Shown here: positions 4,609 to 25,880 of the stretch, in pieces | Layout of the letters: each line of letters opens with the position of its first letter | How positions within the stretch are numbered: the stretch's first letter is position 1 | DNA from: an uncultured Butyrivibrio sp. | GTDB lineage: Bacteria; Bacillota; Clostridia; Lachnospirales; Lachnospiraceae | Assembly: GCA_945928575.1 (NCBI GenBank) | Contig: CAMENP010000013.1 | Location: 45,610 to 77,609, forward strand | DNA length: 32,000 nucleotides | Direction of reading: 5' to 3' | Notes under the pieces: generated by a model | The model's input: the letters and a program-made list of their open reading frames with translations, nothing else | Told to the model about the DNA's origin: nothing | The model's database searches: none | Position numbers and translations under genes: made by a program

Positions 4609-5472
4609 ATGAGCGAACCGATTGGTGAAATTAAAAAAAGCACGTCAACACATGCAAGACGTGTAATAGCTTATATAGTATTGATAATTCTTTCGATTTT
4701 GTGCCTCTTTTGGTTCTATATACTTCTGATTTACTCAACCAGAAGCAACGGTGAGATACAGAAGGGAATAACATTTATTCCGAGTACGCATTTCGTAGAG
4801 AATTTTAAGAACCTTGTAAACAGCTCACAGCCTGTATTCCAGGGCTTGAGAAACAGTTTGATCATCGCATGTTCATCAGCATTGCTTTCAACATATTTTT
4901 CAACATTGACAGCATATGCAATCCATGTATACGATTTCAAACTTAAGAAATTCATCTTCACATTCATTCTTATGATAATGATGGTTCCTACACAGGTAAC
5001 CGTACTTGGATTCATACAGTTAATGACTAAGATGAATTTAATTAATAACTTTATACCGCTTATCGTACCTACGATAGCAGCGCCGGTAACCTTCTATTAC
5101 CTTAAACAGTACATGGAAAGTGCACTTCCGTTAGCCCTTATAGAGGCAGCGAGAATTGATGGCTCCGGTGAAATAAGAACATTTAACACGATAGCACTTC
5201 CGCTTATGAAACCGGCAATTGCGGTTCAGGCAATCTTTACTTTCGTAAGCAGCTGGAATAACTACTTTATCCCAACATTCATACTTAAGAAAGAGAAGAT
5301 GAAGACAATACCTATCATTATTGCACAGCTCCGTTCATCGGACTACCTGAAGTTTGATATGGGTCAGGTTTATATGATGATTACGCTTTCAATTTTCCCT
5401 GTAATTATCGTATATCTCATCCTTTCAAAGCATATCGTTTCAGGTATTGCAATGGGTTCGGTTAAAGGTTAA
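4609..5472 (+). CDS. Carbohydrate ABC transporter permease (MalG-like)
   Basis: I chose the ATG at 4609 (AAGGAGG at 4594-4600) over the TTG at 4561 used in the ORF track. The EAA loop is 'LIEAARIDGSGEIRTFNTIALPLMKP'. Confidence 0.9.
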   Translation: MSEPIGEIKKSTSTHARRVIAYIVLIILSILCLFWFYILLIYSTRSNGEIQKGITFIPSTHFVENFKNLVNSSQPVFQGLRNSLIIACSSALLSTYFSTLTAYAIHVYDFKLKKFIFTFILMIMMVPTQVTVLGFIQLMTKMNLINNFIPLIVPTIAAPVTFYYLKQYMESALPLALIEAARIDGSGEIRTFNTIALPLMKPAIAVQAIFTFVSSWNNYFIPTFILKKEKMKTIPIIIAQLRSSDYLKFDMGQVYMMITLSIFPVIIVYLILSKHIVSGIAMGSVKG

Positions 5473-22855: not shown

Positions 22856-23332
22856 TCAAGACTCGTTGACCATCTTGCCGGTTATGTGTTCCGGTGTAAG
22901 GCACAGACAGAGAACGGATGGAGCGGAATGTGTTAACTCGCGGTCAATGTATTCCTTGCTGTCGGTAAATTTGTGGCAGAGATTGGTACACGCGTTAATA
23001 GTAACGGCGTCATCTGTTACCGGCTTTATGCGGCCGAATACTATGACGCTTCTTATATTAAGCGCCCATTCGCCTTCATTGCGGTATCCTTCGTCATACA
23101 CGCAGAAAGAAACTTTGTCACAAGCCTTGATCGCATCTATTTTGTGGCCTTCTTTGGCGCCGTGGAAATAAATACAGCCGTTTGACTCATCATACCAGTA
23201 ATCGATCGGCACACCGTACGGATAACCGTCATCTCCGATTACGGAAAGAACGCCACGCACTTCTTTTTTCAGAATATCAATGCACTCCGGCAATTCAAGT
23301 TCCTGTTTGTATCTTCTCATTTTACGAAACAT
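22856..23332 (-). CDS. Pyridoxamine-5'-phosphate-oxidase-fold FMN-binding protein (Nim-like)
   Basis: I chose the start at 'MFRKMRRYKQELELPECIDILKKEVRGVLSV' (CAGGAGG upstream). It has the split-barrel flavoprotein look and is 158 aa. Confidence 0.7.
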   Translation of the reverse strand: MFRKMRRYKQELELPECIDILKKEVRGVLSVIGDDGYPYGVPIDYWYDESNGCIYFHGAKEGHKIDAIKACDKVSFCVYDEGYRNEGEWALNIRSVIVFGRIKPVTDDAVTINACTNLCHKFTDSKEYIDRELTHSAPSVLCLCLTPEHITGKMVNES

Positions 23333-23452
23333 ATTGGGACCTCCTGTTGTGTGATATGTTAATATTGTATTAAATTCTATCACAATATTATTAGATTTCA
23401 ACATAAAAAAATGTTAAAATCGCTTATATTTATTAAGATATGTGAGGAAATT

Positions 23453-24640
23453 ATGAAAGAAAATTATACAAAGACAATTTATGCGTGTTTTATAGGATAC
23501 ATCATTCAGGCGGTGGTAAACAGTTTCGTGCCGCTTCTGTTCGTGACCTTCCGGAAGACTTACGACATACCGTTATCACAAATTACACTTCTGATAACGG
23601 TTAATTTCGTTGTCCAGCTGTTAATCGACTTATTATCCGCCGGGTTTGTGGACAAAATAGGATACAGGGCGTCCATGATAATCGCTCATATTTTTGCGGC
23701 AGCAGGTCTTGGGATGTTGACATTCATGCCGGATATCTGTTCAAATTCGTTCGCCGGACTTCTGGCTTCGGTAATAGTGTATGCGGTAGGCGGCGGCCTT
23801 TTAGAGGTTCTGGTGAGCCCGGTTGTTGAGGCCTGTCCGACTGACAATAAAGAGAAAACAATGAGCCTTTTGCACTCGTTTTACTGCTGGGGCTGTACTG
23901 GCGTGGTTCTTTTGTCCACGGTGTTTTTTGCGATTTTCGGAATCCGTAACTGGAAAATAATGACACTCATCTGGATGCTGCTTCCGATAGCCAATATGAT
24001 ATTGTTTACGCGTGTTCCGATTTACAGTCTTCAGGAGGATGGCGTCAAGGGTATGTCGCTTGGCGAGCTTTTTAAGGAAAAAATCTTCTGGATGCTGATG
24101 ATAATGATGTTGTGTGCCGGCGCATCCGAGCAGGCGGTAAGCCAGTGGGCATCGACTTTTGCGGAGCAGGGACTTGGAATTACCAAGACGGTCGGTGACC
24201 TTGTCGGCCCAATGATGTTCTCAATCCTTATGGGTACTTCAAGACTTCTTTACGGAAAATTCGGTGACAGGATGAATCTTGACCGGTTTATGAAGTTAAG
24301 CTGTGCGTTGTGCGTGGCGGCTTATCTTTGCATATCGCTTGTGCCTAACCCGGTCGTGCAGCTGATCGGGTGCGGAATATGCGGTTTTTCGGTCGGAATC
24401 ATGTGGCCGGGAACTTTCAGCCGTGCTTCGGCATCGCTTAAACGCGGTGGCACAGCACTTTTTGCGATGTTGGCGCTTGCGGGCGACATGGGATGCTCCG
24501 GCGGCCCGACACTTGTGGGAATGATATCGAGCGCGGCAGGCGGTAATATGCAGACCGGTATCCTCGCCGGAGTGATATTCCCGGTGGTACTGCTCGCCGG
24601 ACTGGTATTCGGGGGAAAGAAGCGTATAAGAACGAAATAG
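23453..24640 (+). CDS. MFS transporter
   Basis: About 12 TM helices in a 6+6 arrangement with a central loop. I chose the ATG at 23453 (GAGGAAA upstream) over the track start at 23411. Confidence 0.8.
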   Translation: MKENYTKTIYACFIGYIIQAVVNSFVPLLFVTFRKTYDIPLSQITLLITVNFVVQLLIDLLSAGFVDKIGYRASMIIAHIFAAAGLGMLTFMPDICSNSFAGLLASVIVYAVGGGLLEVLVSPVVEACPTDNKEKTMSLLHSFYCWGCTGVVLLSTVFFAIFGIRNWKIMTLIWMLLPIANMILFTRVPIYSLQEDGVKGMSLGELFKEKIFWMLMIMMLCAGASEQAVSQWASTFAEQGLGITKTVGDLVGPMMFSILMGTSRLLYGKFGDRMNLDRFMKLSCALCVAAYLCISLVPNPVVQLIGCGICGFSVGIMWPGTFSRASASLKRGGTALFAMLALAGDMGCSGGPTLVGMISSAAGGNMQTGILAGVIFPVVLLAGLVFGGKKRIRTK

Positions 24641-24710
24641 TGAATGATTGATTGTACTGTAAGTGGTTGTGTGATATGATAAAAAGAGAATTGGTAAGGA
24701 GGGATGGAGA

Positions 24711-24950
24711 TTGAAGGCGGATGAAAAAATTAAAAATACCAATGAACTGGAGTTCGCTGTATTTTGTATTGAAAATGTAGCGGCAAAACTGGGTGTGGAT
24801 GCAGAACGTGTCTATCAGGCATTTACTGAACAAAGTGATATTTTGAACGGTTACATTGTACCGGAATATGAAGTGCTGCATACCCAGAGCCGGGAATATA
24901 TTGTTGATGACCTTCTTGATGTGATGGAAGAAAGGGGTGTGGAAGTATGA
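24711..24950 (+). CDS. DUF3791-like small protein (first of two)
   Basis: A TTG start lies 8 nt after AAGGAGGG. 'LEFAVFCIENVAAKLGVDAERVYQAFTEQSDILNGYIVPEYEVLHTQSREYIVDDL' matches my recollection of the DUF3791 pattern (...F.v.cIE.......g....v........l...i....e.lHt.....iv.di). Confidence 0.65.
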   Translation: MKADEKIKNTNELEFAVFCIENVAAKLGVDAERVYQAFTEQSDILNGYIVPEYEVLHTQSREYIVDDLLDVMEERGVEV

Positions 24951-25297
24951 TTCTTTATCATGGTTCTTTCTTAGAGATTGTAAAGCCGGATTTATTTCAT
25001 TCCCGCCCCAATGTAGATTTTGGGCGTGGCTTCTATGTCACGCCGCTGCATGAACAGGCGGCGAAGTGGTGCGGCAAGTTCAAACATCGTGGAAAAGACT
25101 CGACGGATTACGACCTTGTTATAGGCGGTGTTGCTAATGATAAGGTGTTCAATACTGTGGAGCTGTTCTTTGACGGACTGATTGATAAAACGGAAGCGCT
25201 CAACCGCCTGCGTTATGAAAAGCCGAACCTGCAGATATGTTTCCGTACAGAGAAAGCATTGTCTCTGTTGCATTTTGAAGGGAGTGAAACACTATGA
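24947..25297 (+). CDS. DUF3990-like protein (putative ART-fold), unusually short variant
   Basis: 'MILYHGSFLEIVKPDLFHSRPNVDFGRGFYVTPLHEQAAKW' and 'YDLVIGGVANDKVF...LQICFRTEKA' resemble DUF3990 N- and C-terminal blocks. ATGA overlaps join it to both neighbours, and AAAGGGG lies 9 nt upstream. Confidence 0.65.
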   Translation: MILYHGSFLEIVKPDLFHSRPNVDFGRGFYVTPLHEQAAKWCGKFKHRGKDSTDYDLVIGGVANDKVFNTVELFFDGLIDKTEALNRLRYEKPNLQICFRTEKALSLLHFEGSETL

Positions 25298-25515
25298 CAT
25301 CGAACCCGATTTTGCTTCAGAAAAAATATAGCCGTGTTATTGAGTACTTTGCCAAACAGCAGGGACTTTCATTGGATGCGGCATTGGATTTCTTTTATCA
25401 TTCCCAGGTTTATCAACTGATTCGTGACGGCGTTTCCGATATGCATTGCATGAGTGACTTGTATCTTGCGGAGGAATTAAGACAGGAGTATGCAGAGAAA
25501 ATGATGAAATTATAA
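25294..25515 (+). CDS. DUF3791-like small protein (second of two)
   Basis: 73 aa, 'YSRVIEYFAKQQGLSLDAALDFFYHSQVYQLIRDGVSDMHCMSDLYLAEEL'. GAAGGGAG lies 9 nt upstream, and its start overlaps the stop of the preceding gene (ATGA). Confidence 0.6.
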   Translation: MTSNPILLQKKYSRVIEYFAKQQGLSLDAALDFFYHSQVYQLIRDGVSDMHCMSDLYLAEELRQEYAEKMMKL

Positions 25516-25519
25516 AGGG

Positions 25520-25548
25520 TTGACTATGCCAGCCCATTGTGCTACCAT
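25520..25548 (+). promoter_or_regulatory. Promoter candidate for the T-box leader and metG
   Basis: TTGACT (25520-25525), a 17-nt spacer ending in TGc, then TACCAT (25543-25548). It starts 5 bp after the cassette stop codon. Confidence 0.4.
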
Positions 25549-25559
25549 TTTGTCATAAA

Positions 25560-25862
25560 TAAAAATACCGTCTTACGGAAACACTGTGAAGGAAAGAGTA
25601 GGTATGGAAGGACATCTACAGAGAACTGCCGGTTGCTGAGAGGCAGGGTGGAGGACATATCGAACATGGCTCCGGAGTGGCGCACCGAACAGCATGGCTG
25701 CAAGGCTGCGACAGGAACGCCTGTTATAGCGAAAATGTATCGGGAAATACACCTGTACATTGTGAGGTCCGTTCTGCGAGGAACGGATGAAGAGAAGTGG
25801 TACCACGGATTAAGATTATAACCCGTCTTCTGAAGATAATGATAGAAGACGGGATTTTTTTA
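25560..25862 (+). promoter_or_regulatory. T-box riboswitch leader, methionine (AUG) specifier, with terminator
   Basis: Stem I elements are AGAGUAGG and CAGAGAACUGCCGGUUGCUGAGAGGCAGGGUGGA. The candidate specifier AUG is at 25666-25668 within GAAC-AUG-G. The T-box sequence AGAAGUGGUACCACGG is at 25793-25808. The terminator is CCCGTCTTC - 13 nt loop - GAAGACGGG plus T8 (25823-25861). The leader is directly upstream of metG. Confidence 0.8.
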
Positions 25863-25880
25863 TCAGGAGGAATATTTAAG

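Follow-up and report, generated by a model that had tools for sequence, protein, structure and literature searches.

Directly upstream of metG, on a contig of an uncultured Butyrivibrio sp. (GenBank assembly GCA_945928575.1, contig CAMENP010000013.1, positions 45,610 to 77,609; this whole stretch of 32,000 nucleotides is called the window, and coordinates refer to it unless another locus is named), there are three small overlapping ORFs, here named A, B and C. An initial annotation made from the sequence alone regarded them as a candidate uncharacterised toxin-type or defence-type module, in which the middle gene would be an enzyme-like toxin. This raises the question of what kind of cassette the triplet is, and whether the copy in this genome could still act as such a module. 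Judged by its profile matches, the triplet is an orphan copy of PDC-M13, a phage-defence candidate in PADLOC. The explanation that we favour, and hold to be probable, is that the toxin-like gene B has lost the core of its domain and is most likely enzymatically dead, so that the cassette persists as a disarmed remnant.

Identity and layout of the cassette

The three adjacent, overlapping genes lie on the same strand and match the hidden Markov models (HMMs) of PDC-M13A, PDC-M13B and PDC-M13C in this order. A is a DUF3791 protein (Pfam PF12668, E = 1e-21, 77.1 bits against a cut-off of 25) and aligns with profile positions 1–78 of 78 of the PADLOC model PDLC04434 (PDC-M13A, E = 2.1e-39); its homologs, at 85–96% identity, are found among thousands of gut metagenome sequences, while a sequence search of the PDB with A alone gave nothing significant. 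B is a DUF3990 protein (PF13151, E = 1.2e-35, 122.9 bits against a cut-off of 32.2) and matches PDLC04438 (PDC-M13B, E = 2.6e-49). Both matches of B are split into two stretches that skip profile positions from about 46 to 91, and its residues 51–115 pair with positions 92–157 of the 158 in PDLC04438. C aligns with positions 1–70 of 75 of PDLC04442 (PDC-M13C, E = 9.9e-40). The profile search thus bears out the family names that had been proposed for A and B. NCBIfam returned nothing for A, B or C, and PHROGs returned nothing for these three or for P0075, a full-length relative of B (related proteins and loci are cited by our P and L numbers).

The two outer proteins had been taken for the same kind of small helical protein, and this holds in part. 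A belongs to DUF3791, whereas C reaches 23.7 bits with that family (E = 4.8e-5), just under the cut-off of 25, and BLASTP gave no alignment of A with C. On the other side, hhalign aligned the profiles of the A and C families co-linearly (E = 0.05), and A also matches the PDC-M13C models of PADLOC (E = 6.6e-11). From these comparisons it is plausible, if weakly supported, that A and C are two proteins of the same kind. In addition, B matches PDC-M10A (E = 3e-25) and A weakly matches PDC-M10B (E = 0.004), whose profile has 156 positions. PDC-M10 may be a two-gene relative, the partner of which, about twice the size of A or C, could reflect the fusion of two DUF3791-like units.

The PDC systems are 145 candidates that were collected by 'guilt-by-embedding', that is, from genes nested in bacteriophage exclusion (BREX), DISARM or type I restriction-modification systems (Payne et al., bioRxiv 10.1101/2024.01.29.577857; PADLOC-DB v2), and a rumen survey counted 3,324 PDC-M13 hits among 6,530 genomes (PMC13356809). 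The window copy resembles this candidate in gene content, order and strand, and its relatives are embedded in BREX, as in the derivation of the candidate. It differs in that B covers its model in two pieces, being about 40 residues short of a full-length DUF3990 domain of about 156–158 aa, and in that it lies outside any BREX, DISARM or type I restriction-modification system. The likeness to toxin-antitoxin and anti-phage modules pointed out earlier thus finds a counterpart in PDC-M13, with the E-values given above; the word 'uncharacterised' stands less well, the module being already catalogued.

The coordinates are collected in Table 1. As read before, ATGA stop/start overlaps link the three ORFs (79, 116 and 73 aa), A to B at 24947–24950 and B to C at 25294–25297, and each has its own Shine-Dalgarno sequence: AAGGAGGG at 24696–24703 for A, 7–8 nt ahead of its TTG, GAAAGGGG for B and GAAGGGAG for C, both with a spacer of 9 nt. 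The start position of A is common to its relatives, which use ATG (n = 60), GTG (n = 8) or TTG (n = 5). Among the related cassettes recovered, the 4-nt overlap between A and B is kept in 86 of 86 and that between B and C in 98 of 99. Since the overlaps are near-universal, the coupling of the three genes is a conserved property of the cassette and not a coincidence. Small, adjacent and coupled genes with relatives on plasmids and mobile elements are also the generic layout of type II toxin-antitoxin systems. In one metagenome variant of the window's lineage (L008), a G>T change at 24713 turns the TTG of A into TTT, and the gene caller then gives a 51-aa A, possibly an early step towards the loss of this gene in that strain.

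Table 1. Features of the cassette and its immediate surroundings (window coordinates).
Feature	Position	Strand	Description
Leader upstream of A	24624..24710	+	Travels with the cassette in the window's species group
Gene A	24711-24950	+	TTG start, 79 aa, DUF3791 (PDC-M13A), putative partner/antitoxin of B
Gene B	24947-25297	+	ATG start, 116 aa, internally deleted DUF3990 (PDC-M13B), ART-fold toxin-like
Deletion junction in B	25087..25099	+	Single remaining repeat copy TCGTGGAAAAGAC; the repeat flanks the 120-bp segment in full-length alleles
Gene C	25294-25515	+	ATG start, 73 aa, PDC-M13C, divergent DUF3791-like helical protein, putative second partner
metG context, outside the cassette	25520..25833	+	Promoter-like site 25520-25548; T-box leader 25577-25833
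ART, ADP-ribosyltransferase.

The deletion in B and the domain that it interrupts

Compared with relatives that are about 90% identical over the shared positions, B lacks exactly 40 residues, positions 51–90 of the 156-aa norm, which read DGIISRYEYDExRExELKxLKFDSYSEEWLDFILNCRSGK in those relatives. When the window was aligned by blastn with the full-length locus L009, the homology fell into two pieces that overlap by 10 bp in the window (25089–25098) and lie 120 bp further apart in L009. The full-length genes carry direct repeats exactly 120 bp apart, typically 8–9 bp long (GGAAAAGA(T)) and 13 bp long in the closest full-length relative, L040 (CCGTGGGAAAGAT); they encode a duplicated 'GKD' at both edges of the 40-codon segment. 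Because these repeats bound exactly 120 bp, a slipped-strand or microhomology deletion is indicated; it keeps the reading frame, and with it the ATGA overlap that couples B to C. The identical 116-aa protein is present on 23 contigs from independent SPAdes, MEGAHIT and Logan assemblies, so the deletion is not an assembly artefact.

The domain concerned was modelled with AlphaFold2 for P0075 (156 aa), using an alignment of 62 homologs with 62–90% identity. The model has an ADP-ribosyltransferase (ART) fold with high confidence (predicted local distance difference test, pLDDT, 93.1; predicted template modelling score, pTM, 0.85). In a Foldseek search of the PDB its top match was 9r35_A, the RES toxin of the Pseudomonas putida Xre-RES toxin-antitoxin complex (E = 1.8e-4, probability 1.0, template modelling (TM) scores 0.50/0.53), followed by the RES-type toxin VPA0770 (8gug) and then by the catalytic domain of exotoxin A, PARP10/14/15, tankyrases and the A subunits of pertussis and cholera toxins. 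Among viral models it matched a phage DUF3990 homolog (TM 0.75), ART-PolyVal domains and PARP-like proteins. The RES toxins are NADases with an ART fold, and the structurally similar ParT/PrsT are mono-ADP-ribosyltransferases (PMC12204516). The statement of the initial annotation that Pfam groups DUF3990 with ART-fold families is also correct, as DUF3990 is among the families of the ART clan (PMC7955679), and the fold search on the full-length relative agrees with it.

Conservation was judged over 57 diverse DUF3990 clusters with 35–57% identity. The positions D24, F29, Y30, W79, D96, G100, D105 and Q136 are invariant, and Y4, H5, F25, G26, G28, T32, Q37, A38, F72, L80, R87 and A103 are near-invariant. 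On the P0075 model, Y4-H5, F29-Y30 and Q136 lie on the strands 2–7, 29–32 and 134–139, respectively. The motifs 'YHGS' on strand 1 and 'FGxGFYxT' on strand 2 resemble 'HGS' and 'GxGxYF' in the NAD+ site of PARP1. By analogy, H5, Y30 and Q136 resemble a PARP-like NAD+-pocket signature of the type H-Y-Q, with Gln at the place on the 134–139 strand where the catalytic Glu is expected, and full-length B is a predicted ART-fold enzyme of this type. The B of the window retains Y4-H5-G6-S7, D24-F-G-x-G-F-Y30-x-T and N94-x-Q96, its H5, Y30 and Q96 corresponding to H5, Y30 and Q136 of the family. Mapping the pocket residues, as the initial annotation had proposed, therefore gave a divided result: the H-Y motifs are conserved in the family and kept in the window, whereas the third residue is Gln instead of Glu and the assignment of the pocket is by analogy.

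What the deletion takes out lies between these motifs. On the P0075 model the lost segment comprises a strand (53–59), a helix (61–66), a strand (69–71) and a helix (77–87), that is, the third and fourth of the seven strands together with the second and third helices; it also carries the invariant W79 and the near-invariant F72, L80 and R87. Because the deletion removes these four elements including Trp79, the model suggests that the B of the window is most likely enzymatically dead, and it is probably unable to form the ART fold. With essentially the same alignment, AlphaFold2 gave the window's own B a pLDDT of 50.5, a pTM of 0.34 and no strands, so that the split beta-sheet of the ART fold was modelled for P0075 and not for this low-confidence model. 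A fold search with the latter returned no ART matches and is uninformative at such confidence. The proposal that the middle gene is a candidate active toxin is therefore doubtful for this copy, an internally deleted allele of 116 instead of 156 aa.

Among the known systems, Xre-RES, MbcTA and ParST come closest in structure, since solved RES structures head the matches of the full-length B model. They share with B a small stand-alone ART-fold protein beside small partner genes, which overlap in the case of B, and copies on both plasmids and chromosomes. Moreover, an XRE-type helix-turn-helix (HTH) gene (HTH_26 or HTH_3) lies directly upstream in some relatives of B, about 70 bp ahead of A (L009–L016, 5476–5694; L021, 4483–4698; L023, 3129–3395). 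We considered this gene as a fourth component of the cassette and rejected it, as it occurs upstream in some loci only (L009–L016, L021, L023 and L048), and most loci, the window included, lack it. Unlike RES toxins, which have R-E-S residues and one HTH-DUF2384 antitoxin, the B family has the PARP-like H-Y-Q and two flanking DUF3791-type partners; and because no protein of the cassette matches the Pfam RES family (at E ≤ 1), the B family is not RES. The PARP and diphtheria-toxin-type (H-Y-E) ARTs and the ART-PolyVal domains are likewise matched by the full-length model (exotoxin A, PARP10/14/15, tankyrases and ART-PolyVal), with the differences that a conserved Gln (Q136; Q96 in the window) replaces the catalytic Glu, that the TM scores are about 0.4–0.5 and that there is no significant sequence match to solved ARTs. 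DarTG, in which an ART-fold toxin that ADP-ribosylates DNA is neutralised by its partner and which acts in antiphage defence, shares with the cassette only the concept of an ART-fold toxin plus a neutralising partner: there is no macrodomain antitoxin in the cassette, and DarT is not among the Pfam or PADLOC matches listed. Finally, the DUF3990 domain (PF13151) is the C-terminal toxin domain of Rhs5, a type VI secretion system effector of Serratia marcescens, a polymorphic toxin that bears it as a variable toxic tip and whose immunity gene lies downstream (PMC4524185). B differs from it as a stand-alone cytoplasmic protein with two DUF3791-type partners, no delivery domain and an internally deleted domain.

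Recurrence of the deletion and apparent selection on the short alleles

A neighbour-joining tree was built for 85 distinct A-B-C cassettes with the deleted columns left out. The short alleles are polyphyletic in this tree; they are placed apart from each other and mostly beside full-length sisters. The window's clade together with L018/L019 stands beside L040 (156 aa), L021/L022 beside L027, L023 beside L088, and L017, whose deletion is a different one of 37 codons, beside L060, while L025/L042 form a deep branch of their own. In addition, the single-nucleotide polymorphisms flanking each junction agree with the full-length sister of that same allele. At least four or five independent events are therefore indicated. 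In the sister species, strains that are 98–99.6% identical over 3–10 kb carry either 116 aa (L018, L019, L020, L104) or 156 aa (L040), and all examined contigs of the window's lineage have the short allele. Smaller in-frame deletions within the same segment give proteins of 143 and 146 aa, and of 150 aa in L092. The distant DUF3990 clusters P0163, P0171, P0243, P0203 and P0226, with 45–62% identity to P0075, include proteins of 107–126 aa that have no central segment and keep both termini.

The short alleles appear, from their substitution patterns, to be under purifying selection. Between the window and its sister species dN/dS is 0.18–0.25 for A, 0.12–0.14 for B and 0.04–0.05 for C, and the branch leading to the window shows 4 synonymous and 3 conservative nonsynonymous changes in B. 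The B values exceed the median of full-length alleles (0.048), and we tried relaxed selection after the deletion as an explanation; no specific signal emerged, since A is raised as well and the full-length pair L040 and L028 gives 0.15, and the counts within the short-allele clades (given below) point to constraint instead. In all 80 loci taken from GTDB representative genomes the ORFs are intact, in a retrieval that favours intact matches. Because A, the remnant of B and C are intact and apparently under purifying selection, the cassette would persist as a disarmed remnant, and the remnant of B may keep a residual role.

Several points weigh against the favoured explanation of a core-deleted, dead toxin. 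Concerning its structure, H5, Y30 and Q96 are all retained in an intact ORF, and a low-confidence AlphaFold model of a deletion variant is no measure of stability. Concerning the family, the match of the P0075 model to solved ARTs is moderate (TM about 0.5), PDB sequence searches with B alone and with the 57-sequence family profile found nothing significant, our literature search turned up no paper on what DUF3990 or DUF3791 proteins do, and the authors of the PDC set state that these are candidates without testing (bioRxiv 10.1101/2024.01.29.577857). Concerning selection, B has 12 synonymous against 4 nonsynonymous changes within the short-allele clades, where neutrality predicts 78% nonsynonymous (binomial p = 1e-5). 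Furthermore, UMGS1370 and UMGS420, whose syntenic flanks are 88% identical in nucleotides, share the short allele with a dN/dS of 0.065 (L024 versus L025), the dS of the cassette (0.11) being lower than that of the flanking gene (0.31). This sequence pattern is not what a pure pseudogene would be expected to give.

The same selection data also argue for another reading, namely that the 116-aa B is a functional natural variant, which would fold only together with A and C and do something selectable. It could be a toxin of altered specificity or attenuated activity, a non-catalytic scaffold or regulator, or part of an anti-addiction immunity cassette in which the deletion is a repeatedly selected one-way switch. 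Consistent with this reading are the retained motif residues outside the deletion, A and C being intact in every short cassette examined, the exclusive presence of the short allele on the examined contigs of the window's lineage, with the identical protein on 23 contigs from many samples, a 119-aa short form of B within an apparently complete BREX locus, and the repeated central loss both in the cassette clade and in the distant clusters P0163, P0171 and P0243. Yet the invariant W79 and two of the seven strands are gone, AlphaFold2 gives the short protein no fold, and a direct-repeat hotspot alone can account for the recurrence. Moreover, much of the synonymous divergence could predate the deletion, because each strain may have acquired its deletion recently and independently: full-length L040 and short L018 differ by about 0.2% across the cassette, and the strains concerned are those identical at 98–99.6%. 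Considering both sides, we regard a functional short B as unlikely. A more specific form of this idea, in which the repeat-flanked segment is a built-in one-way disarm switch and the resulting A-B*-C cassette (B* being the short form) is selectively kept for anti-addiction, for immunity or as a regulator, is unlikely in our judgement; if true, it would explain the recurrent in-frame loss, the purifying selection on short alleles and their fixation at core-genome positions.

We therefore return to the disarmed remnant, for which the following course may be proposed. An intact B would be an NAD+-consuming toxin, either an NADase like the RES toxins or a mono-ADP-ribosyltransferase. A and C, putative antitoxins by analogy with known modules, would be made in a fixed proportion with B through the ATGA overlaps and would keep it from acting until it is released, for instance by phage infection or when the element is lost. 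The intact cassette would thus be an addiction module, an abortive-infection module or both, with a candidate antiphage effect. In the window's lineage, slippage between the two short direct repeats would then have removed exactly 120 bp (40 codons) of B. Such an in-frame deletion would be the kind of mutation that inactivates B and keeps the ATGA coupling, which matters if A and C are still useful. The remnant, likely to be enzymatically disarmed, would be harmless and perhaps still of use, for example in neutralising incoming intact copies.

Relatives, mobility and the site upstream of metG

At least 538 loci of this kind were found in GTDB representative genomes, mostly of Lachnospiraceae and other gut Clostridia. 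Their distribution is patchy, the cassette proteins are about 90% identical across genera, and the genes next to the triplet differ in almost every genome. DNA homology between cassettes ends at the ends of the ORFs (24712–25501 in the window); that to the L017 cassette stops at 25501, and the right-hand boundary of the cassette lies at about 25501–25508. The L017 cassette is located between PglX and PglZ-BrxL of a BREX system, and an arrangement with PglX and PglZ around the triplet is found in 12 of 86 loci, five more having fragments of PglX or PglZ adjoining. Cassettes with P0075 adjoin ParB/TnpV/HTH genes, a giant DUF4011 helicase, a serine recombinase, MobC, a Pycsar system and a Schlafen-like ATPase. 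Furthermore, 87 plasmid records contain a DUF3990 homolog. In the Clostridium botulinum plasmid pCLI (L184, NC_009700.1, 2280–3215), genes for a DUF3791 protein, a DUF3990 protein and a small hypothetical protein directly follow rep, and the same gene order is found beside rep on plasmids of C. tetani (L185, 2277–3218), both with about 40% identity. This placement after a replication gene suggests a plasmid-stabilising role. The distribution as a whole is typical of toxin-antitoxin or abortive-infection modules.

These relatives bear on a further possibility, that the triplet has no part in toxicity or defence and encodes a small enzyme of housekeeping or regulation together with two partners of chaperone type. 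The enzyme might handle ADP-ribosyl groups or be a phosphotransferase acting on RNA or small molecules, and the proximity of the triplet to metG would reflect a role in translation or metabolism. The genes of the window are of housekeeping type, the literature search turned up no toxicity data, and ART-fold enzymes include the non-toxic Tpt1/KptA. Against this, no recovered triplet outside the window's species group adjoins metG, the cassette is missing at the metG site in close relatives, and its neighbours vary almost everywhere. The patchy distribution at high protein identity, the relatives in BREX, on plasmids and on mobile elements, and the use of the DUF3990 domain as the toxic tip of an Rhs protein also speak against it, and we think this possibility very improbable.

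The gene upstream of A encodes a major facilitator superfamily (MFS) transporter (PF07690, 23439–24535), and a promoter-like site (TTGACT-17-TACCAT, with a TG ahead of the second hexamer or of the site as a whole) starts at 25520, the fifth base past the stop codon of C; both were described correctly in the initial annotation. Ahead of metG this site is followed by the T-box leader (RF00230 in Rfam, 93.9 bits). Some assemblies call a 51-aa ORF within this leader (25720–25875; 6720–6875 in L001), which is almost certainly a spurious gene call. On the other side of the cassette, the leader upstream of A was delimited by comparison with L104, in which homology to the window picks up again at 24624 after a deletion of 22870–24623 (PNPOx and MFS). 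By eye, a weak promoter-like site can be read in it (TTGTAC at 24652–24657, a 17-nt spacer and TG-n-TATGAT at 24672–24680), which stays below the threshold of the promoter scanner, and a scan of the window found no terminator-like site between the MFS gene and A. The rest of the window is housekeeping, with LacI and an ABC transporter, GdpP, DnaB, DAHP synthase, Hsp70, DeoC, glycosyltransferases, tatD and rsmA. Neither BREX remnants nor a tRNA gene as a possible integration site was found in the window. The GC content of the cassette (0.39–0.46) is not clearly different from that of the flanks, and composition thus gives no sign of foreign origin.

Close relatives show that this site is variable. 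In Butyrivibrio sp. CAG:318 (L040), whose methionyl-tRNA synthetase (MetRS) is 98.5% identical, the order is YfbR-PNPOx-(MFS remnant)-A-B-C-metG with full-length B. In L105, a strain of the sister species (ODHN01000794.1, MetRS 98% identical), there is no triplet directly before metG and homology to the window resumes at the stop codon of C; instead, PglZ and BrxL adjoin the metG promoter and end 30 bp before the resumed homology (L105:1–4620). At the DNA level these BREX genes share 85–93% identity with the ones beside triplets of Agathobacter, Clostridium fessum and other genera; the PglZ of L105 is apparently split by a frameshift at about 173–209. In L106, L107 and L115 (MetRS 81–86% identical), metG comes right after YfbR, and PNPOx, the MFS gene, the triplet and the T-box leader are all missing. 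There YfbR ends about 80 bp before metG (around 4890–5000), and because such a gap leaves no space for a T-box, the T-box leader is lineage-specific. Because the presence of the triplet and of BREX genes differs among these relatives, the cassette is an accessory element and metG is preceded by a variable site of the defence-island type, in line with the earlier idea of an inserted accessory unit. The cassette is not a fresh insertion, because it is older than the split of the window's lineage from that of CAG:318.

The same locus could also be read as a pseudo-operon in decay, which stayed behind as neutral sequence when a BREX island or mobile element was lost and has no function at present. 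The cassette is indeed an orphan, with BREX and mobility genes absent from the window, and other orphan triplets retain fragments of PglX or PglZ alongside. The L008 variant has lost the start codon of A, and the segment from YfbR to the triplet is deletion-prone: the MFS gene is cut to a 38-aa remnant in L018, L019 and L040, and PNPOx and the MFS gene are both deleted in L104. By contrast, neutral decay does not fit with three intact ORFs that keep their ATGA overlaps and Shine-Dalgarno sites, with dN/dS values well below 1 for all three genes against the sister species, with the few and conservative amino acid changes on the window's branch of B, or with the preservation of the cassette at the metG site across two species. 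We consider this reading quite improbable.

The kind of triplet is already catalogued; new are the finding that the toxin core has repeatedly been lost in frame between direct repeats and the constraint under which the short alleles appear to be. The locus is thus a pointer to an abundant candidate system rather than a novel system in itself. It is also a poor choice for showing toxin activity, for which the full-length allele of L040 (Butyrivibrio sp. CAG:318) or P0075 is better suited. PDC-M13 is among the commonest unvalidated defence candidates of gut and rumen Firmicutes, and the family gains a concrete proposal for its mechanism, that of a PARP/RES-like, NAD+-using toxin that would be held in check by two coupled DUF3791 partners. 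Genome scans that count PDC-M13 will include probably disarmed alleles, since these match all three HMMs. Furthermore, the repeated in-frame loss of the core argues indirectly, on genetic grounds, that the intact enzyme carries a cost, and if the short alleles should prove functional, they would provide an example of the domestication of addictive or abortive modules.

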